Part shown: positions 1-41,518 of the stretch, one piece after another
How the letters are laid out: every line of letters starts with the position of its first letter
Numbering within the stretch: position 1 is the first letter of the stretch
NCBI GenBank assembly: GCA_046563655.1
Contig: CM102284.1
Location: 3,782,001 to 3,846,000 of the forward strand
Length of the DNA: 64,000 bases
Origin: Yuukianura sp. NJ FZ-2021
Taxonomy: Eukaryota
Direction of reading: 5' to 3'
The notes under the pieces: model-generated
What the model was told of the DNA's origin: nothing
What the model saw: the letters and a program-made list of their open reading frames with translations, nothing else
Database searches by the model: none
Program-made: the position numbers and the translations under genes

Positions 1-540
1 TCTTCAATGCCATGATTCGTTATTGCTTTTTTTCAGCAGGATTTCTGGAAGAAGATGACAAGGAGGAATTTTTATCAGTTCAACAGGTCTGTTTTCACTG
101 GGAAAAGGAAAATTCCACTATTTGTGAAATTTGCGCAAAGGAAAATCGGTTCATTCGTTGCAGCCGTTGTTTTAAAACTTTATGTTTTTCTTGTTTTTTT
201 TTTATGTACCACTTGGCGGAGTGTCAAAAGTAATTAAAAAGTTTTACTGAAATTAAATTTGAAAAAGTTTTTGGTGAAAGTGAATTATGGTGGCTAATAT
301 CTAACTATTTACATTCGCTAGATTGAAGTTTACCTGGTGTTGCATGTGAGAAAGCGTCTGGGCGTTTTTTGTCCTTTGAGGCGGGGACGCGGGTTCAAAT
401 ACTGGGGTAGAATTTTTAGAATTTTTTTTTTTTTTGCGTTCGCAACTAAAACTACCACCAAAATGTTTGTGCTTACATCAGGAACTCGACTACAACTCTA
501 GAATTCCAAATTTCGAGATCACGTGGAAAAGCATCCCTCG
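1..540 (+). mobile_element. 3' end of a Tc4/Tc5 (pogo-related)-like DNA transposon: transposase C-terminus (stop at 233) and right terminus
   Basis: ORF 12-233 MIRYCFFSAGFL...VCF...CEIC...FIRCSRCFKTLCFSCFFFMYH resembles, from memory, the Cys-rich tail of Tc5-like transposases. The sequence ends ...GCATCCCTCG (540) followed by TTA. Its reverse complement CGAGGGATGC fits the CnAGGGA termini and TNA target site of Tc4/Tc5. Similarity to the paralogous intron at about 34845 begins just after this point. Confidence 0.6.
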
Positions 541-603
541 TTAGTACATCCAACTTATCGTTATGCTTGTTTACGTTTATTATAGTAACATTGTTTGTAA
601 CAG

Positions 604-1919
604 AATCGGAAGAACCAGTCGGACGATCCCATCAAAGTCAAGGGCAGAAAAGACGCAGGTATGAGAATGGATTCTCTGACGCAGAAGAAGACGATGATTT
701 CAGCGAAGATGAACCCATAGGGAGAGAACCCCGAGTTCGTAAACGTAGACGTCCGGGTCGTCCACCGAAGGGATCAACACGGAAGCGTAATTAATTGACT
801 CCACACAGTTTAGATTACATTTTCGAAAAGGCACTAGCCATGACTAAACCTTTGTCACTTGAAATTGCTTTGTATAGCCAAGACGTTTCGGGTAGAACTG
901 ACTCCGCCTCCACCTAAGGTCAGTCGTCCGAGGGGAAGGCCGCGGCGGGTAGCCAAACAGGAAGAGGATCTGCCGAACGCTGAAACTGAAGACAATATGG
1001 ACTCACGTAAGTTATTTACTTCAACGCTCAATATTAAAAAAACAGTATTTTTTAATACTGGTTCATTGCAACCGCTGAAAGGAATACCCTCGAAAAACTT
1101 AAATAGGTTGTAAAAAAACGATATAAGTTTCTAGAAACAACTCAAAAATTCCATCTTCAAAAGAAGTTGACGTTGTTGACTATGATTCGGATGAGACAAT
1201 TTTCAATGACACAGAAATCGAACAGTTTCCACCTACTCCACCACCAGCTCAAGTTTCGAGACGCTCTGGAACTTCGTCAGTCGCTGGAACGTTGACTGCA
1301 TCTCAAAGGAAAACTAATTCGAATTCAAGGCCACCTTCCAGACTCATTGCTGACTTCGACAGGTACTTTTTAAAAGTTTTGTTAAACGAAACATTTTATG
1401 CACTTGGTACATATTGACAATGGTTTTAAACTTACATAGACTTCCGCAACCAGTATCCAAGGAACCAAATTTTGCCTACAAACCTGAGAAAGCCATTCGA
1501 AAGAAAGCAGAGCGAAAGAATCTTCCAGGGTGGGATTGCCCCTCTTGCCGATGCGTAAGTTGTCGAATAGCTGACGATTATTAATTAATACTTTTTCGTG
1601 AAGTCTACATGATCTTTTTCGATTGATGTTTTCAGTATTATGAAGCCATGGAGTCACAATTGGGACCTGGAGAACTTGAAAAACTGAGGAATAAGTGTTC
1701 AAAACATCGCTCCAAACTTCCCGAGCCAGATTTTTTACATAATACTCCACGGTGTACGTTACCTGTTCAACCAAACATTGATCAATTACTAATTACTACA
1801 ATTAATTTGGTCATTTTCTTGTAATAGATTTCTGGGACTTGGACTTTCCTTCCACCCAAGAATGTATTCAGAATGGTCTCATTCGTTTCGGTGAGCGATC
1901 TCAAGTTCATCAACCGTAA
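604..1919 (+). CDS. RBBP8: CtIP/Sae2 C-terminal-domain protein, 5'-partial and apparently chimeric; exons about 604-786, 878-1006, 1128/1135-1362, 1440-1554, 1636-1753, 1828-1919
   Basis: Manual splicing gives ...DFDRLPQPVSKEPNFAYKPEKAIRKKAERKNLPGWDCPSCRCYYEAM...CSKHRSKLPEPDFLHNTPRYFWDLDFPSTQECIQNGLI. This contains the RKKxER, CxxC, S(R/K)HR and TPxxFWxxxFPSTQ motifs of the Sae2/CtIP C-terminus. Intron phases are consistent from 1362 onward; the 1006 to 1128/1135 junction is uncertain. Confidence 0.8.
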
Positions 1920-2114
1920 GCAAAGGTACCGCGATCATTCCGGTCAACTTCGTCTGCGATTTTTATTTATGTACGCATATTACATCGGAAACTTCAGGGG
2001 AGCTTTCGAATGCAAAGAGGGAATCCAAAGTGACTTAATTGCAAACGGATTTTTGAAACACATTGTTAAGTGTGATAAACAATGAAATAAAAGTGACTCC
2101 CAAATATTCAACAA

Positions 2115-4191
<2,077 letters not shown>

Positions 4192-4791
4192 TTAGATTAA
4201 CGATGCGTAATTAGTTCAACTAATTGGAGAAATTACAACTTTAGACTTGAAGTTTAGTCGAAAACCACCAAACGAATTCATAAATGACAAAAACAGATGA
4301 TCCAATCCAGTACATGTGAAACATTCAAAAGCACGTGAAAACTTTTTTTTTTGTGATTGTACAGTACGAGACAAATGTCATATGACGGCAGCGGGAGAAA
4401 AAATAAAGAGCGGGATGTGTCTCTACTCACTCACTGTGTGTGTCGTGTCTTTTTCTGTCATCGGTGTTACTAAAATCGGTGTTACATCGGTGTTTTAGTA
4501 CTACATTATACTCCGGCTCAGTTCGATTTCGACGAAGTCTCACTCAGCTGTAATCGTAAAGGTCAAACGCTAGGTCACACAGTTGATAAATCACGTCTTG
4601 GGTAAGTAATCTTAGGGACTAGGGAGACTGAGACTTGTCAAGGAGTTTTCAAAACCGCAGTTTCACATTTCACGGTTGACACTAAAATTGCCACTGAAAT
4701 GTTTCGAATTCTTAAAATGAAATATCTATCCAATTCCAATTGGTAACATCTTTTTATTTTTGCTAGGGCGCGTTAACATCTAACAGCAATC

Positions 4792-7322
4792 ATGAGTGCC
4801 TTGGACGACTTCCTAGGACTGTGTGACGCCGATCCAGACTTCGATTCCGGCGAAGAGGAGGATCCATTTGAACGTTTTATGAATAAAAGCTCTCAAAACG
4901 ATGACAATAAAGACAAGCCAGCAGCAGGGAGTAGCCAGCGAGAATTTCACGAGTTGTTTGGGTCACCAACCAAAATCTCACAAGGACCGAAACTGAAAAC
5001 ACTGGAAGCAGATCCGAAGGTTAAAAAGCAGCTATTGCCAGTCGTCACTACTAATGCTATGCGAAAGACCCAGCCAATCGGAAGTTTGGCCTTCAAGGGA
5101 GCCCCACATGATGATTTGGTGAAAGATCCGTTTTCGGGTTTGCGCCTTCTGAAAAAGTCCATTCAACTTTACTTCGATGAAGTACAAACAGTAGATCTCA
5201 GCATCAAAGAAAGGAATTTGACCATACCTTACACAGCTCTGGACAAAGTAGGAAGCATAAAAGACAAAGGCCACTTCTGGACATGCGGAGTCCTCGTTAA
5301 GAAAGTTCCCGGAATTCGACAAAGTGCTAAAGGGAACGACTACGTGCTGTGGGAGATCAGTGACTTGGAAAGCGCCAATTCAATTACCCTGTTTCTATTT
5401 GGAGGTTCAGGGTCCACCGATTCTCTCAAGATGATGCCAGTGGGAACACTGCTTGACTTAGTCAATCCCGGCATACTGACAGACAATAAGCAAGGAGCCG
5501 CTGGATCTCCAGGGTTTAAACTGTCAGTATCACTGGCTTCTCAGATCCGCCATATTGGAACTGCGTATGACTTTGGTTTTTGTGGATCTCGACGAAAAGA
5601 TGGGAAAAGCTGCACGAATCCAGTCAACAAATTCAAGTGTGAGGTTTGCATTCATCATGCTGCTGCAGAACTGCGAAAACTCAACGCTGCTTCAAAGAAA
5701 GGAAACAAATGGGGAAAGAACAAAGGTTTTACGGAGTACGAAAAAATTCAATTTGCCAAACGCATGGAATCGCTGCGTTCAACTTCCGGGGAAGCCGTGA
5801 TGACAACAAATTTTGGAAAAGTCAACAGGAAGTCGCTTCCGATAGTCTCCGGGGGTGGCGGAGCCTCCACTTCGAAAGCTGGCATAACCAGCAATGGTAT
5901 CGGTGGACGTAAATCGCTCGGAGTTGACAACTCCCAAGTCAAGCCTATACCCAAACCCAGAATGGAACTGCAAGATGCTGCCAGTAGTTTACAGAAGAAG
6001 TCGAAACAGTCCAGCATTACCTACTCGAGGGACACAAGCGACCTTCTACGCTCGGTTTCCACTGAAGACAGTTCAACCAAGAAGAAATTGGAGGTCAACC
6101 TCAATCCAGCGCAGACGAAGCACTTGTCCGATCGCGATAGATTTCTTATCGAGAAAGTTGAAAAATCAAAACCAAATTCAAATTTGGCAGCTATGCTAAC
6201 AGATCCAAATCCAGGGAGTCAAAATTTTCTGAAATTCTTAAGCGATCGGCAGAAGAATGAACTTGCAGACAAGGAAAAAAGTACACCGAAAGGTCCTGGC
6301 AAGGTTTTCATGACTCGTGACGCCTTGATGAACATGCAGAAAGCTATTTCTGTTGTCAAGAAATCTGGACCAATCAAAAAGGCCGATCCAAATGCCGTTT
6401 CAAGAAAGAGGAAGTTGACATTAGAACTTGAAGTGGAAGAACCTTCGTCAGTTTCAGCAAGTTCCAGCGGACATTCTTCTGCCAGTTCTAGCTCCAACAA
6501 TGGCAATGACGGAATTCCTCCCAAATCCAAGCAACCAGTGAACATAGCTGGCCAAAAAACAGCTGGAATGGACATGGATTCTGAACAATTCGAGAAAATC
6601 TTGAATGCCAAGTCAGCACATTCGGACATTGCAGAAGAAAATCAAGAGACCGACTACTTTAACAAACTAGAACGTAAAGAAGCGATTGAGAATAAGCTGT
6701 TATCTACATTTTCGATGTCCACAACGGCCTTCATGTGTCGAGAGTGCAAGTACGTCGCTCTGAGCCAGTCTGACCTCTGCAAAGAACGAAATCATGCCGT
6801 TCGAGCTGTCAAAGCCATCAAGCGGTTTTTCAAATGCAAAGACTGTGGAAATCGGACAATGTCACTTGATCGTTTACCCAAAAGACGTAAGATTTTATTT
6901 TTTCCTTACTAGTTATGGTTAGACTAAATCTAAATTAAACTCTATTGTAACCAAACTGTAACCAACCACCGGCGCCATTTTTGTAACTTTTAAAAAACCT
7001 AACACGTGGTTACAATGGGCCACTGGATGGAATGATGGAAACAAAAATGATGTCGGTGGTTACACTCATTACATTGTGTGGTTACAATGCATACAATTTC
7101 GGTTTACTCCAACCCCAATTCTTCATAAAAATCAATTCCTTTAACATGGTAAAATACAATTGTTTTCTTATTTCAGCTTGCACCCATTGCAAAAGTTCTG
7201 CCTGGTTGGCTGCTCCAGTTGGAAAGGAGAGATCCGGGCCTACGCTGGATTCGGAGCGTTTATCGGTTCGTGGAGATGAGGAGATGTTTCTCGGATCAAC
7301 AAGTGCCAAACTCTTTCTCTGA
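4792..7322 (+). CDS. MCM10: DNA replication factor MCM10 (exons about 4792-6886 and 7178-7322)
   Basis: OB-fold region WTCGVLVKK...SAKGNDYVLWEISDL, zinc finger DFGFCGSRRKDGKSCTNPVNKFKCEVCIHH, and C-terminal YFNKLERKEAIENKL...CRECKY...KRFFKCKDCGNR...CTHC...ERLSVRGDEEMFL. Confidence 0.95.
6944..7088. repeat. Degenerate foldback/MITE-like element in the MCM10 intron
   Basis: ATTGTAACCA / TGGTTACAAT ends, with repeated internal TGTAACCA/TGGTTACA motifs. The intron (about 290 nt) is longer than most in the window. Confidence 0.55.
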
Positions 7323-8482
7323 AATCTGAAAACACGAAAACCGTGCAACCCCTTTTCAAAGTTTCAACTTCAAACGGAAGAGGAAAGCAATTGTTTACTT
7401 TTTCAGATTCAAAATGTAAGCAAATGTTGTTCTAAATAAGCATGCGTTATCCTAGAAAACATAAGTTTATTTCCGTTACAAGGATATCCGAGAACCTTCG
7501 GATTAATTATAATTTTTACCTTCAGAATTTTTTATTATTGGATTTTCATAAAAATGTTGTGGTGTTTCTAGAAGGCTTTCCTTTCCAGACTTGCGGCTAA
7601 GTTTCTCGGATCATTTCGTTCGACATGCGAAGAGTGTTTTCTGTTTTGTGAAACAGGAATCTACTGCCTGCTTGTCTTATTAATTTGGTGTTAATTTTTG
7701 GCGTCAAAGAGTCGCCTGTTCTGGTCTGAAGAACATTTTTGCGCCTGCTTTTCCTTCTGTTCAAACAAGGAGAAAGTCACAAGCTTTAAAAGTGATCCAG
7801 GCTTTCTCTTGGCTTTATGCAAAAGTCCAAGGCTGGGCTAAACTTTCTCCCAATCAGTCACCCTCTGTCATTCTGCCCTTACACACAAACTGTTTTAGCG
7901 TGTTAACGTCATCTCGCACGCCAACGTAATAAGCCTTTGTAACTGTTTCGTTGACCAATAATTATAGCGTTTCCTGGTATAAAATGTTTCTGAGTTGCTC
8001 CGATGTAACTTAACCAAACTTCAAAACAAACCATTCAAAACGTAGAAGAGTGTTTCGTCATATCATAGTGCGCTACTTTTTAGCATTTTTGTCGACGTTT
8101 TTGACGTTCTAGCTGTTTGAAGCTTTCCCCTCCCCACTGGTGCGCCTGACGATCCCCATGGAATGCTAAAAATAAGTACAATCATGTATAACTCTGCTAA
8201 AAATTTTTGCTCCGAAGTCTGAAACTGAAAATACATCACGCAACAAGGTTATTAGTGAGGAAAAACAAGCCTTGTTGGCTCTGAGTGGTTGAAGACTTTG
8301 TGCAAAAAACCGAATTCGGTGGTTTATTCCCAGTGACTGGCGTCCCCTCCTCTTCTTTCCCTTTCTGAATTAATTAGTATTGGAATCGACGACGCAATCA
8401 TCCAATCGTGCCCTTGTTTTCCTCAATTTTGTCCATGGTAACTAACCAACAGCTTTTGTTCATCCAATTGGCCAAGGCGACT

Positions 8483-14237: not shown

Positions 14238-16177
14238 TTAGTTCACAATGTAATCTTTCTTCTCCGGGTAACACGTCTTCTCCTCGGCACTTACCATTTC
14301 AAATTTTAGAATTGGATCCCAGTATGATTGCATGCAAAATCCAAGACCGTCCCAAGTAGTTTCCACAGTATCTCTTGTCTTGTACCTCTTTTGCCGACTA
14401 GTTTCAGTGTGAAAAGCGTCAACAATTAACAATTAAACATAACTTATTTAACTACTGCAATTAAGTAAAATACCGTTTAGAAGTGCTTGGCGGAGTTGTA
14501 GTAGTTACCATTGGTCCACATTTTGAAGAGCACGGGGAATAGGGCACTGGCACAGCAATGTTTGATCCTCCACAATGAAACCGATTTCACTCTGAATTTC
14601 TTATTAATTGAACTTTTGTTATATTTATGGGCTTACTGTAGCTGAAATCATTGTGCGTTCCAATAAGATTGTCAAATCCGCCTGGGAACATGTCTCCACA
14701 AGAGTCAACCAATTTGTATGAAGTTGGACCACGAGCACTGTCCCAAAAATGACCTCTGATGACCCTGTCCTTACTAATGTACTCGACTGAGGAGAAGCAG
14801 ATTGAGCTGCTTTTCCCTTTCTCGGTGGCTTGGATTGAGCGCTTGGAATTGATAGTTATGACAGTGGGCCAGTGAAAGTCAATCACTGGAGTCGGTTTAC
14901 CCGGTGCAATTTCGTGAAACACGGTCAGAGAATGGGGGGCTACGTAGGTCATACTGGAAGGTTAACATTAGGTTAGTTAAAAAACGTTTGGTTAGTTAAC
15001 ATTAACTTTGGTTAGGTTAGATTCCAGAAAGCGGTACTAATTTAGTATGAGGATTTACCTTTTCTTAAAGTTGCCTGGATCTCCTAAGTAGATGAACATG
15101 CTGATCTGTGATTTGAAATTATTTTTGAAATTCTGATTCCTATAGAATAGTAAACAATCAAAATTCAAGATTCAAAAGGGGAAGGCACAAAACCCTATCA
15201 AAATCATCGTTGGTGGGTTTTAGATGAAATTTTAACTGGTTGTTAAGGTCCATGGTAGGATCATTTCTGCAAATTTTCAACTCCCTAGAAACGATAGGTC
15301 AAGGGTTACGGGGGGTCAAAGGTCACCTGGTCGTCCTATGACAACCCCACGCAAGTAGCATATCGTTGGAACGGGCGTGACCTCCTGATTCAGAAAATAT
15401 ATACATGTTGCTATCTATGATGTAAGACAAGCGAAACATTGCGCCCTGAATGCAAACTTGCAATTTTCACCCGGGTCTCGTCGCTCCGTTTTGCTCTGAA
15501 CGCGCAGTGTTTCGCTTGTCTTACATCATAGATAGCAACATGTATATATTTTCTGAACCAGGAGATCAAGCCCGTTCCAACGATATGCTACTTGCATGGG
15601 GTTGTCATAGGACGACCAGGTGACCTTTGACCGCCCGTAACCCTTGACCTATCGTTTCTAGGGAGTTGAAAATTTGCAGAAATGATCCTACTATTGACCG
15701 TAACAACTGGTTAAAATTTCATCCAAATCCCACCAACGATGATTTTGATAGGGTTTTGTGCCTTCCCCTTTTACGTTGAAGTCAATTTGGTAGCATCGTT
15801 CCTGTTCTTTCTCTCCGTAGAAGATGTATGCAGAATGGTCGCAGAGTGTAGAATGCAACACCCATCTGCCAATATTGCCAATATTAGTTGAAGATCTTTA
15901 ATTCAATTACTTTCGGGAGTTAGATAATGTCGTAACTAAATTCAACCTAGACTTACGTTCCTTGCAAACAGACGCATCCCGGTAACATCGGTTCCTTGAG
16001 GAAGATTCCCTTGGGACAATCGGTCGTTAGTGTATCGTAACGGTCACCGTCACGAGTACAAACGCGGATCCAACCGTACTTGTCATCTTCTTCGGGTCGT
16101 TTCGTAGTGCACGGCAAAGCGAAAAACAAAATCAGAAATACTTTGGCCTGTAAGAACTGGGTTGGCGAAGATGTCAT
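14238..16177 (-). CDS. Putative secreted Cys-containing protein with a C-terminal TSP1-like module; contains an in-frame TGA at 14587-14589 (possible pseudogene or unusual splicing)
   Basis: Signal-like FLILFFALPC. Exons about 16177-15957, 15895-15775, 15105-15059, 14953-14474 and 14399-14238 join in consistent phase. The C-terminus PYSPCSSKCG...RRQKRYKTR...C...EEKTC resembles thrombospondin type 1 spacing. Confidence 0.6.
15174..15772. mobile_element. Near-perfect palindromic (foldback) non-autonomous element, about 600 bp, in an intron
   Basis: Arms of about 270 bp, AAAAGGGGAAGGCACAAAACCCTATCAAAATCATCGTTGGTGGG... / ...CCCACCAACGATGATTTTGATAGGGTTTTGTGCCTTCCCCTTTT, with scattered mismatches and a short spacer near 15460-15490. 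Confidence 0.92.
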
Positions 16178-33235: not shown

Positions 33236-34403
33236 AAATACAGTTCATGAAATCTTTATTCGTAATAAATATTTCTATTTATAGTTTAACTTAATTCGTT
33301 CAGGTTGGCTTAGTTCTCATTTTTACATCTTCCATGTTCTGTTGCATCTTCACAACAAAAATTGTTTAAATCCTGGCAAAATTGGTTTAGCACAAGCAAA
33401 GAATAGTAGTAGACACTAACCTAAACTCGAATTTGAGTAGAGTGAAAGCAGGCTGGCGAAAGCGAAGAAATGAGTATAATCGAAAGTTCAAATTTTTAGA
33501 TTGTGAATTTTTAATTGTGGCAATTTTGAATTTGCAAAATGCAATTTACTAGTAAACATCAATACAAACTGGAAAGCGTCATCTGCTGAAGGAGCGCGTT
33601 ATTTTGAAAAGGAATCCTCCCTCCCCCGGGGTCAACTCCCGCGTCCCCCTCGCTCCCCTCCCTCATCCGGTACTGTTCGGCATCTGGTTGACAAAAACCC
33701 GCAAGACACAGTTGTATCCTGGGATTTCATTGTTTCTTTCGTTCTTTTTTTATATGGATAAAACATACATAAATATATGTTACATGTAGATGTATTAACA
33801 TTGATTAAATAAACATTCAACTGAAATCTAACTCTTGAACGTCCTAGATTAGATAAAAATTCATCTGAATTCTAAGTCATAACTCTAAAATAAAGGCTTC
33901 ATAATAATAAGGCTTTATACAATTTATGGTAACTTATTCATTTAAATCAGTCAAATTACTAAAAGTAAGCTATTAAACTGACTTAATTCGAAAGCCAGTA
34001 GCCAGTCGATTTGGTTACGCAACCGGGCCACCGGGCGCAGGGTGGATACAACATGGTTCGTCTTGTTTACTAGAACTAAATTTCGCTTTTTAGTTTGATT
34101 CGGGCATTGCAAATTCATTTGCTAATTAATATTCAGTGTCAAACATTACAAACACAGCGATTAACTCCATTCACCGACAACGATTTGTGATCGTAGATAA
34201 CTTATCAGAAGCATTAGAATTTGGTAAGTTCGTTATTAAAAAAGCCTCTGATGGAACTGAAACTGAATAATTACTGGGCCTGCTTGTGATTGTAGAAAAT
34301 CTAACTTGAATGTTGATTCTGTGATCTGATACTAAAAAACTAAAATAATGATTGACTACATATTCGTAGTTTTTTACATTTGGTATGTTGATTACAGGGA
34401 GTG

Positions 34404-35884
34404 ATGGAAGTCGTTCAACTGGTGGAAGTGACTGGTCAAGGTCACCAAGTGATGGAGAATTTTGAGGATCTGATTCTGACTGTTGTTCCTGAGGGGCAAG
34501 AAGCAGAAGCTTTAGCGGCTGCTGGATCGAGCGAAGGGCAGCGAACAATTGTTGTCACCGAAGTTCGTAACAATCCTCAAGAGGAAGATGACAGCAAGAA
34601 TAAGCAAATAGAAAGTTTACAAGGCAGAGTTGAACAACTAGAAGACCAAGTCCATTTCTTGGAAGATGAGTTACGAATTATGCGACGAAAAATTCATGCC
34701 AGCATGCCGTCAAATAGCTACAATACTATTCGGCGAACTGTACTTGAAGTTCTGAGTAAACAAACGTTGAAGGTATCTCTCTCAGATTTTGAAGATGAAA
34801 TGGGTACGTTCACTTTTAACTCCAAAGCACACATTTAAACTACCTATTGTTACGCTTGTTTACGTTTTATTTTATATTTATATCATCACATTGTTTCTAG
34901 CAGAGTCGGAAGAACCAGTCGGACGACCCCATCAGAATCAAGGACAGAAAAGACGCAGGTATGAGAATGGATTCTCTGACGAAGAAGAAGATGATGATTT
35001 CAGCGACGATGAACCAATAGGGAGAGAACCCCGAGTTCGTAAACGTAGACGTCCGGGTCGTCCGCCGAAGGGATCAACCCGGAAGCGTAATTAACTCATC
35101 CACACAATTTAGATGTACATTTTTGAAAACGCACTAAGTAGTTATGACTAAACCTGTGTCACTTGAAATTGCTTTGTATAGCCAAGACGTTTCGTGTAGA
35201 ACTGACTCCGCCTCCACCTAAGGTCAGTCGTCCGAGGGGAAGGCCGCGGCGGGTAGCCAAACAGGAAGAGGATCTGCCGAACGCTGAAACTGAAGAGAAT
35301 ATGGACTCACGTAAGTTATTTACTTCACCGCTCCACTACTGGTTGATTGCAAGCGCCTTTCCAAATGGTTAGTCTAAGTCTAAGTTTACTAGTTTTTAAT
35401 TTAGATATTGAGCACACCATTGAAGACGATGTTGAAGCTAACACAACAGCGGAAGTGGGAGCCGAGGATGGTGAACCAAGCTTCATCATTGAAGATAACC
35501 TGGAAGAAGACATGCAGGAAATCCATGCTGAGGCTGAAACGCAACAGATAGAAGCTGAAGCTGAGCCTGTACCGGTTACTGCTACGAAGACGGCTGCCGT
35601 TGCAGTCGCTGAGGTCAAAGCAGTGACTAAACCGGAACCAGCCGACGATTCCAAACCAGCGTCTCCGGCAAAGAGAGGTAGACCTCCCCGCGCAACTCCA
35701 CAAGCCCAAGAGGTCAGTGAGTCAAATACAGTCATCGTTAAGCGTAATTAGTATACTAAAGTAATTGATTCAGCGAATAAGCAAAAACGTTTCTTTGCAG
35801 CAGGTTGAGGCGTCGACACCCACCCCGGCACCCGTGCGTGTATCCACGCGTGCACGAAAGATTTCCAGGAAAGCCAGCGATTAG
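34404..35884 (+). CDS. Acidic protein with a coiled coil and AT-hook-like motifs (about 5 exons)
   Basis: Heptad stretch KQIESLQGRVEQLEDQVHFLEDELRIMRRKI and motifs RRRPGRPPK, RPRGRPRR, KRGRPPR. GT-AG junctions are phase-consistent; stop TAG at 35882-35884 and AATAAA at about 35975. Confidence 0.75.
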
Positions 35885-36175
35885 AGTAAAACTTGACTAA
35901 TATTTGGATTCCAAAAATTAATTTAACTCAGCAGAGGACTCCATGTTCTGCTGAAGACATGTTTTTCATTTTCCAATAAAATAGACATTAATTAGCAGTC
36001 AGTGTGTATTCAATTGTATGTGGTTTCATTAAAAGTTATGAAAATAAAACACTTTAATTTCTTTTGCTGCTAACCTTGTTTTAGCATAAGGTTTATCTAT
36101 TGATATTTTCATCTTAATCTCCTCAGTGTTCTTGTTTCACGCTTAATAGCATCTGAGACCGGGTTAGTTTTCATT

Positions 36176-37740
36176 TCAATTTCGAGATGCAGCATTTTGG
36201 ACTCGTTCGTACAGCACCTTGCACATTTCATTTCTAGCCATCACAAAGAATGTTGGAACGCCTTTTTCAGGGAGTTCGAATCTAGAAGTATCAAAATCAA
36301 AATGAGGAACAATTATTATCAAATTGGAAAGTTCCGGAAGCTTAAGCTTGCTTGACTGCGTCGACTTAACCCACCGTTGATCTTGTAGCACTTCCAGTAG
36401 AGTTTGCGCAGGATCAACCTGGATGTAACCACAAGTTTGGAAGTCGACGTAGTAGATGTCCAGTATATCAGAACGATACTCGTGAGCCAAATCCCAAGCA
36501 GGACTTTCATTGTCAAACATTTCTACTAAATGTTCTAAAAATCTAAAACAAAACAAGCAAAAAGTTAGTTTTTATTCGGAATTTTGTTGAATATACTTGC
36601 GGTTATTGGTTTTCTTACGTGGAATTTTCATGGAAAGATTCAATGAAGTCGGACTGAGAGTACTGCGGATAGCAAAAGAACGTTGGCCATTCCAGACAAC
36701 CATCTTCTCCAATTTTGACATGTTTGCCGGGTTCTGTTTCTTCATTCAAAAACTTGGAACTTCGACACTTAATCTTCCGTTTCCTCACTTCCGCCATAAT
36801 TTCCTCAAACATCTTTGCCCCGGCTCTCTTTTTGAACTCGTTCTTCCGATCAGTAGCATCATTCAGTTTCTACAAAAAAAAATCAAGAAGAGTGACACTT
36901 ATTAGTCCATTCAAATTCAAAAAATTTAACAGCTTCGGTAACAATTTTTTTTAAAAATTACCATGTTTCGAATAGCTAAAAGTCTGAGTCTCTCAACCTC
37001 TGAATTTTTAGGCTGGAGTTGTTCAGCTCTTGTGCAAAAGTCAAGCGCCTTTTTCCATTTTCTTATTTTGATGGCTGCTTCAATCGCTTTAAAGGTTGGT
37101 TTAAAGTAATCACTGTTGTAGGAAATGGACGTCTCGCAATCCAGAAGGCACGATCGGTAGTTCTCTAAATGAAACTGAGCAGCAGCTCTGTTATTGTACA
37201 GTTGAGCAATCAGTTCGTTCGTTTGCTCTGTCTTGTTTTCAATGGTCATTGCTATTCTAATAGCTTCCGTGAAACAGGCAACTGCAATTCGATACTTTTT
37301 CAACTTGAAATGAAAGTTGCCATCTTCCTTGTAATTGAGAGCAAGTTCCTCCGGTTCGTTGTCATCTTCTGAGTATTTCAGTTGCTGCAGAGCTTCTAGC
37401 AGTGGCGGAAGTGGTTCACCATCTTTCGGCATTTCCTTCATGAAAAATGGATGCTTCTTCAGCTCCTAAAAAATTAATCAAATGTGGATAAGTAAGCAAA
37501 TCAAAATAGCTGTAACTTTTATCTAAGTCAAATCAAGTGTGACGTGTCACGTACTTCGTCCAGACGGGTTGGATCCCATCCGTCTGTGTACTTGATTCCT
37601 CTCCTATGCTGCGGAATTGCATCTATTATGGCATCCATGTCAAATGGATTCCCATCCGTGGACATATTGAAAGGTTTTGCTAATTCATTGACATCAAGCA
37701 TTTGCTCCACATCCTCCGTAGTTTTATTAGAAGAAGCCAT
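36176..37740 (-). CDS. TTC4: TPR co-chaperone TTC4/Cns1 (Dpit47-like)
   Basis: HPFFMKEMP...LLEALQQLKY, ALNYKEDGNFHFKLKKY, LYNNRAAAQFHLENYRS, LEWPTFFCYPQYSQSDFI, PAWDLAHEY. Confidence 0.92.
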
Positions 37741-41203: not shown

Positions 41204-41518
41204 TTCAGGTGCATTTCCTGACTGATTGGTAGGAGCCTCAGAAAACTACGACCACACTTTTCGTATTAGCTAACGCTGCTCCACATCTTGAACATCTCCT
41301 ATTTGACGAATCTTCGACCGTTTTGCCATGCGGAGCAAAAAAAGGCAAAAATCCGAGGATTTCTCAAACGTCTTCCAGAAAACCTATGTTTTCTGGACGA
41401 AGGGTTCTGTTTTCGTCCGATTGCAAATGTTCGATATGTGGAGCAGCGTATGCTAGTACGAAAAGTGTGGTCGTAGTTTTTTGAGCGCCTAACCAATCAC
41501 TCAGGAGATGCACCTGAA
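41204..41518. mobile_element. Foldback/MITE-like element with imperfect arms of about 105 bp
   Basis: TTCAGGTGCATTTCCTGA...AAAACTACGACCACACTTTTCGTA...CGCTGCTCCACAT pairs with ATGTGGAGCAGCG...TACGAAAAGTGTGGTCGTAGTTTT...TCAGGAGATGCACCTGAA. Confidence 0.85.

Follow-up and report, generated by a model that had tools for sequence, protein, structure and literature searches.

The human resection factor CtIP oligomerizes through its N-terminal part, and its tetramer bridges DNA (PMC6344080, PMC11317151; tetramers and bridging also in PMC7474685, all at the level of titles and abstract openings). Exon shuffling is the subject of PMC8001218 (Patthy 2021), and young chimeric genes formed by partial DNA duplication are reported from Drosophila in the titles and abstract openings of PMC1463047 and PMC3449122; among the matches listed by a literature search on CtIP and AT-hooks, no title or opening of an abstract describes an AT-hook in the resection factor CtIP. 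The locus considered here brings these themes together. It lies in a stretch of 64,000 nucleotides (nt) from Yuukianura sp. NJ FZ-2021 (assembly GCA_046563655.1, contig CM102284.1, positions 3,782,001 to 3,846,000, forward strand), hereafter the window, in which the C-terminal exons of a CtIP gene (E3 to E6) are directly preceded by two exons with AT-hook-like motifs, named a' and b' (Table 1). The latter belong to a real and young partial duplication of a known kind, for which the comparisons below identify the predicted donor gene and the direction of copying.

As for the CtIP/Sae2/Ctp1/Com1 proteins, E4 to E6 share with them the C-terminal block, namely a basic stretch, a Cys pair, Y-Y, C-S-K-H-R, T-P, and F-W..F-P-S-T-Q; the difference is that the exons immediately preceding them are two AT-hook-like ones of foreign origin, and that the window shows neither a start exon nor an N-terminal part. 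The young chimeric genes of Drosophila are alike in that the copy is recent, was made at the DNA level with its introns, has intronic breakpoints, and lies on the same chromosome as its source, 34 kb apart; unlike there, the strongest donor and acceptor do not share a frame here, and an expressed in-frame product is a candidate.

Regarding the motifs, an AT-hook consists of an R-G-R-P core with basic flanks. This arrangement occurs in exon b' and in the acidic exon of the parent gene, and exon a' has P-G-R-P instead. The parent resembles AT-hook proteins of the HMGA and D1 types in having three basic motifs centered on G-R-P between acidic stretches, and a long helix toward the N-terminus and a conserved basic C-end set it apart from them. 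Even with E allowed up to 10, Pfam AT_hook (PF02178) matched none of the six sequences scanned, namely the two exons in each copy, the acidic exon, and the related protein P0004; the nearest ESM Atlas clusters, with scores of 0.76, carry AT_hook on 45-46% of their members, which is taken as a lead only. The term AT-hook is, accordingly to this, a label for the motif.

The Duplicated Segment

The segment at 553-1075 (copy A, derived) is a young DNA-level copy of 34842-35357 (copy B, parental). When 1-2100 was compared with the window by blastn, a single non-self match was obtained, 553-1029 against 34842-35333, with 90.5% identity over 493 columns including gaps and a score of 671 bits; the reciprocal search from 33501-36500 returned the same single match. 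The only direct-repeat families of at least 60 nt in the whole 64 kb are two ungapped blocks of this pair, 581-794 against 34881-35094 (93%) and 835-1029 against 35139-35333 (97%), and no third copy of the segment was found within the window. Beyond a 23-nt insertion in copy A, the likeness extends to about 1075 (35357 in the parent) and ends there, 50-60 nt 5' of the E3 acceptor.

The segment contains two exons with the complete intron that separates them and, on either side, the adjoining part of the flanking intron; because the introns were copied too, the duplication was made from DNA and not from mRNA, and retroposition is excluded. The splice sites of the two exons are all canonical in both copies. 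These results agree with the first-pass annotation of the stretch, which had described 553 to about 1075 as a close copy of about 34845-35357 covering two exons and their introns: blastn and the repeat scan find the same pair, the alignment places the end of the likeness inside an intron as it had stated, and the other copy does run on into an acidic exon, where the motif K-R-G-R-P-P-R is present.

The 23-nt insertion has no counterpart in the parent intron and forms part of a palindrome at 1029-1060, whose 13-nt arms are 92% complementary and 6 nt apart; it may be templated filler left by the insertion event. The palindrome core (1035-1048) resembles 1111-1124, just before the AAG acceptor of E3, at 12 of 14 positions.

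The Parent Gene and the Direction of Copying

The model of the parent gene comprises five exons and closes in frame. It was compared with two spliced proteins of a relative, P0001, found with parent exon 1, and P0004, which comes from the same 90% cluster as P0001 (the cluster look-up yielded nothing beyond P0004). Parent exons 1 to 5 match P0001 in the same order, with identities of 77%, 59%, 63%, 25%, and 88%, and the match of P0004 reaches the long helix that exon 1 encodes; in the AlphaFold model this exon forms a single long helix, residues 58-100, with a predicted local distance difference test (pLDDT) score above 90 at 70-90. Pfam offered no family for the parent gene, P0001, P0004, or the copied exons, and the best ESM Atlas score of P0001, 0.83, is under the level of real meaning.

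Because the same order recurs in P0001 and P0004 of a distant relative, the predicted arrangement of helix, two AT-hook-like exons, acidic tail with a third motif, and basic C-end is ancestral. The first-pass annotation had also considered that this downstream gene might be a CtIP-derived paralogue lacking the Sae2 domain; that alternative is rejected, given the ancestral exon order and given that CtIP_N (PF10482) is absent from the 13 weak, sub-threshold Pfam matches of coiled-coil type (E up to 1) of parent exon 1. As for the direction, only 13 of the 312 exon nt distinguish the two copies (11/183 in exon a', 2/129 in exon b'), while the CtIP exons of the relative, carried by the metagenome contig L001, are saturated at synonymous sites; assuming a single relative species as the source of P0001/P0004 and L001, this comparison demonstrates that the predicted AT-hook gene at 34404-35884 was the source and the CtIP locus the recipient.

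Two details of the parent may be added. It has a tandem TAG-CAG acceptor at 34898-34903, giving two in-frame exon starts 3 nt apart, and copy A (598-603) is without the first AG of this tandem. Its basic C-end (35831-35881) is the part best conserved in the relative, with 15 of 17 residues, and presumably resembles a short arginine-rich chromatin-binding tail.

The CtIP Exons

E3 to E6 are joined by GT..AG at every junction, and their frame is open to the stop at 1917-1919. E4 to E6 are colinear with two C-terminal protein fragments, P0002 (66-86% identity) and P0003 (45-70%). In an exhaustive search with E4, these were the only two proteins at E ≤0.001 among 1.84 billion, with 66% identity to P0002 and 70% to P0003; E5 has 86% identity to P0002 (E = 3.1e-15) and E6 has 83% over 29 residues, and the alignment with P0003, a spliced sequence, confirms the E4-E5 and E5-E6 joins. 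E3, instead, had no homologue at E ≤0.1 among 88 candidates; it lies in a 96-codon open frame, 1127-1417.

An earlier claim held that the four exons after about 1075 encode an intact Sae2/CtIP C-terminal domain, and a search with the hidden Markov model of Pfam SAE2 (PF08573, cut-off 19.8 bits) had been proposed as a check. The claim is upheld by the colinearity of E4 to E6 with P0002 and P0003, which reach 29 and 58.6 bits with this model; the check itself gave a divided answer, as the exons scanned singly stayed below the cut-off, E4 with 14.2 bits (E = 0.097, profile positions 5-23) and E6 with 14.0 bits (E = 0.11, positions 100-110 of 110), and E5 had no match. Compared with L001, the codons of E4 to E6 have a proportion of synonymous differences (pS) of 0.74, which is saturated, a nonsynonymous rate (dN) of 0.107, and a ratio of nonsynonymous to synonymous rates (dN/dS) of ∼0.03; the comparison establishes the predicted domain as intact and long under strong purifying selection.

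L001 is the contig that bears P0002, and it begins 50 nt before the frame with the E4 counterpart; all 12 tblastx matches between it and the window fall inside CtIP exons. Its region 600-7498 has no coding likeness to the window outside these exons, and the rRNA dimethylase neighbor found downstream in the window is not kept there. An ATG in the intron before E4 (1420-1440) is in frame with E4 when unspliced, and L001 is without it; a short product consisting of the Sae2 domain only, started at this ATG, is formally possible.

From the Copied Exons to CtIP

No in-frame ATG occurs in exon a', in its upstream open frame (450-794), or in E3; the sole in-frame ATG upstream of E5 is at 997 in exon b', three codons before the donor. 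Exon b' has two donors, a strong GTAAGT at 1007 and, nested, a weak GTTATT at 1011. E3, whose frame is open only from 1127, has two acceptor options: the TAG acceptor 1135, preceded by T-T-T-C-T-A-G, needs a phase-2 donor, and the AAG acceptor 1128, without a pyrimidine run before it, needs a phase-1 donor. AAG acceptors and GTTATT donors are poor by consensus, and the other nine acceptors modelled in both genes are all CAG or TAG.

When donor 1006 is joined to acceptor 1135, the read begun at exon b' meets a stop at its codon 96. Two pairs between the copy and E3 are open to the CtIP stop, 1006 to 1128 (AAG) and 1010 (GTTATT) to 1135, and a third in-frame route leads to 1135 from a GTAATT donor at 229/230 that overlaps the stop of a transposase frame. 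The caveat attached to the first-pass annotation, that the better acceptor is out of frame with the donor at 1006 and only the AAG acceptor keeps the frame with it, is borne out by these translated reads. In terms of the phase rule of exon shuffling, the copied exons are 1-1, acceptor 1135 implies a phase-2 intron, and the AAG acceptor 1128 implies a phase-1 intron; the splice mismatch is exactly one base, and two A-runs (1135-1137, 1144-1148) lie in the first 14 nt of E3. The gap from exon b' to E3 is 121-128 nt, and the usual introns of the locus measure ∼70-130 nt.

Of the exon-shuffling proposal made earlier for this locus, what stands is that intact Sae2/CtIP exons are immediately preceded by two AT-hook-like exons, brought there by a recent partial duplication; the predicted AT-hook-CtIP fusion is a candidate, not a finding.

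The Left Edge and the Transposase Frame

The window begins within an open frame, 3-233, that matches positions 5-61 of the 63 in Pfam Transp_Tc5_C (PF04236) with E = 3.1e-5 and a score of 24.7 bits, under the cut-off of 27.4; it shares the strand of CtIP and stops ∼320 nt before the left edge of the copy at 553. In this same-orientation pogo/Tc5-type frame upstream of the copy, the locus is like host-transposase fusions and cases of transposon-linked sequence capture, and it is also like them in that the last codon of the transposase gives an in-phase donor for the CtIP acceptor; it is unlike them in that the ends of the element (inverted repeat, TA target duplication) are not identifiable within the window, its 5' end being outside.

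By blastn, 1-552 has no second copy in the window, and the 21 nt before the breakpoint match nothing elsewhere in it; short repeats in 1-1200 are A/T runs, and tblastn with P0001 found no copy of the first parent exon in 1-552. The left limit of the likeness may be the breakpoint of the duplication, or it may be the edge of an intronic transposon that hides further copied sequence, including a possible copy of parent exon 1 outside the window. A tRNA-like look of 370-400 was dropped, the tRNA and Rfam scans of 1-2500 being empty.

Nature of the Insertion

The explanation favored here, held at about even chances, is that of a young, mostly non-coding insertion in a 5' intron of CtIP. What was copied recently as DNA, to just upstream of E3, is 0.5 kb of the conserved helix/AT-hook gene with its second and third coding exons; the landing site would be the intron between E3 and the 5' coding exon or exons native to CtIP, located beyond the window start. 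The native splice would enter the TAG acceptor 1135 in phase 2, and the copied phase 1-1 exons would mostly be skipped, or would break the frame when included via the strongest sites; the insertion would then be a young and largely non-coding passenger, with an in-frame AT-hook-CtIP protein only as a minor isoform. The argument for a passenger is that the best donor and acceptor break the frame, the rescuing sites are poor, and there is no start codon in the window; that the prior for a useful landing of a 0.5-kb fragment is low; and that a transposase C-terminal frame occupies 3-233, with no copy of parent exon 1 in 1-552. From the copied introns, the intronic breakpoints, the nearby transposon, and the small palindromic filler we infer that the origin was likely an ectopic templated break repair, possibly tied to the neighboring DNA transposon.

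Several observations weigh against a mere passenger. The copies differ by 7 silent and 5 replacement changes, plus one in a split codon, corresponding to dS 0.104, dN 0.022, and a ratio of 0.21; the aligned introns have 23/187 mismatches versus 13/312 in the exons (Fisher p = 0.001), and of the internal indel events, 5 are in introns and 0 in the 312 exon nt. Under a drift null in which copy A is unconstrained and the parent alone constrained, the probability of at most 5 replacements is 0.13 to 0.07 from coding sites alone and 0.02 to 0.006 with the introns added as neutral sites, and that of no exon indel is 0.015, all these tests presuming that exons and AT-rich introns mutate and gain indels at the same rate. 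For at least 2 of the 5 replacements copy A agrees with P0001, which puts the change in the parent; none of the four splice sites of the copied exons is damaged; and two in-frame routes to E3 do exist, 1006 to 1128 and 1010 to 1135. Moreover, the explanation requires native 5' exons that would have to lie outside a window beginning inside the transposon, and a native intron phase that we infer solely from the look of the acceptor. The signs of coding constraint on the copied exons are weak to moderate.

The same signs speak for true exon shuffling, with the copied exons coding in CtIP via 1006 to 1128 or 1010/1011 to 1135, which is a serious possibility and still an unlikely one. The resulting resection cofactor would carry two additional AT-hook-like motifs for DNA binding, and its start exon, either native to CtIP or a copy of the parent helix exon, would be beyond the transposon and outside the window. 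The copied exons have neither stop nor indel, their splice sites are kept, and both in-frame routes run open to the CtIP stop; E3, having no ATG, needs an upstream coding exon, and exon b' stands at the distance of an ordinary intron. Both halves, the copied exons as well as the CtIP exons, are in want of a partner. The symmetrical 1-1 phase is that of the classical exon-shuffling class. On the other side, the strongest donor and acceptor are mutually out of frame, the AAG acceptor and the GTTATT donor that would mend this are poor, the window holds no start codon, and from coding sites alone the constraint is weak (P 0.07-0.13). An early stage of shuffling, in which intron-to-intron copying beside the pogo-type transposon dates back ∼0.1 synonymous substitutions per site and the exons are already constrained, is entertained with the same reserve. 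Constraint on the exons would be explained without weak splice choices if copy A belonged to a separate, truncated AT-hook paralogue, with its own exon 1 upstream of the transposon and its end in the intron after 1006, unlinked to CtIP; the frame 844-1113 is indeed open for 35 codons past the donor, but tblastn with P0001 found no exon-1 copy in 1-552, and the likeness stops 50-60 nt short of a CtIP exon that is without a partner of its own, so that this proposal is improbable.

The mismatch of exactly one base and the two A-runs would suit an artefact of assembly, in which the 0.5-kb repeat led to a wrong join or a homopolymer where E3 begins was miscalled by one base; such an artefact is very improbable, because several indels and mismatches at ∼5-10% of positions distinguish the copies, which are 34 kb from each other within a single window free of gaps (0 N), and the exon order of the parent is independently confirmed by P0001/P0004, which makes a swap of flanks unlikely. 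The uneven divergence, with 97% in the right block (835-1029) and 93% in the left one (581-794), would fit a recent conversion of the right part, as expected if the CtIP lineage had long possessed AT-hook exons that gene conversion from the parent rejuvenated; such old shared exons are a shade more remote still, as the introns were copied too, the flanks retain no likeness at the DNA or protein level, and an unseen older paralogy is required. Most remote is a transposase-CtIP fusion through the GTAATT donor at 230, in phase 2, and acceptor 1135: this join reads in frame through to the CtIP stop, and the same donor type is used after parent exon 2, but a G followed by a TAA stop yields such a donor by chance, the phase match is a one-in-three event, and the intron would be 905 nt against the 70-130-nt introns of the locus.

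Other Elements of the Locus

The window is gap free, and its introns are short. The neighboring genes listed in Table 1 were recognized by Pfam on open frames; Mcm10 is one uninterrupted frame of 711 codons, and the other genes of the locus have many short introns. A foldback element at 15174-15772 has two 283-nt arms, 94% complementary and 33 nt apart, and is probably a transposon of the foldback type or similar to a miniature inverted-repeat transposable element; further inverted-repeat pairs are at 41204-41518 (107-nt arms, 83%) and 3399-3617 (84-nt arms, 76%).

Table 1. Coordinates of the predicted features within the 64,000-nt window
Feature	Position	Strand	Remarks
Copy A, derived	553-1075	+	From blastn, repeat scan, and alignment
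Copied exon a'	604-786	+	183 nt, phase 1-1; acidic stretch and AT-hook-like motif R-P-G-R-P-P-K
Copied exon b'	878-1006	+	129 nt, phase 1-1; AT-hook-like motif P-R-G-R-P-R-R
Palindrome	1029-1060	+	From the 23-nt insertion absent from the parent intron
CtIP exon E3	1128 or 1135-1362	+	Ser/Thr/Pro-rich; from open frame and splice sites
CtIP exon E4	1440-1554	+	Start of Sae2 domain; basic stretch, Cys pair
CtIP exon E5	1636-1753	+	Y-Y, C-S-K-H-R, N-T-P
CtIP exon E6	1828-1919	+	F-W-D-L-D-F-P-S-T-Q block; stop 1917-1919
Copy B, parental	34842-35357	+	From blastn, repeat scan, and alignment
Parent gene	34404-35884	+	Five exons, closing in frame; 367 or 368 amino acids
Parent exon 1	34404-34803	+	Long helix; matched by P0001/P0004
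Parent exon 2	34901 or 34904-35086	+	Tandem acceptor decides between 367 and 368 amino acids
Parent exon 3	35182-35310	+	
Parent exon 4	35405-35712	+	Acidic; third AT-hook-like motif
Parent exon 5	35801-35884	+	Basic C-end
Pogo/Tc5-type transposase, 3' end	3-233	+	Open frame running off the window start; stop 231-233
rRNA adenine dimethylase	∼2115-4191	-	Pfam on open frames
Mcm10	4777-6912		Single exon; Pfam on open frames
DOCK-family gene	∼17.9-23 kb		Pfam on open frames
TTC4-like TPR gene	36176-37465	-	Pfam on open frames
BEACH-domain gene	∼48-58 kb		Pfam on open frames

Significance

Partial duplications that drop foreign exons into an intron of another gene are the raw material of exon shuffling, and it is rare to see one so young, its donor and recipient still intact and 34 kb from each other, before selection has sorted it. 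If the insertion should prove an ordinary young pseudo-exon insertion beside a transposon, the locus would be a caution against taking juxtaposed exons for fusion proteins. If the chimera were true, motifs ready to bind the minor groove would have been added to CtIP, a protein for which DNA binding and bridging are important in break repair, and exon shuffling into a core resection factor would have been caught very early, its product arising via a non-consensus splice choice.

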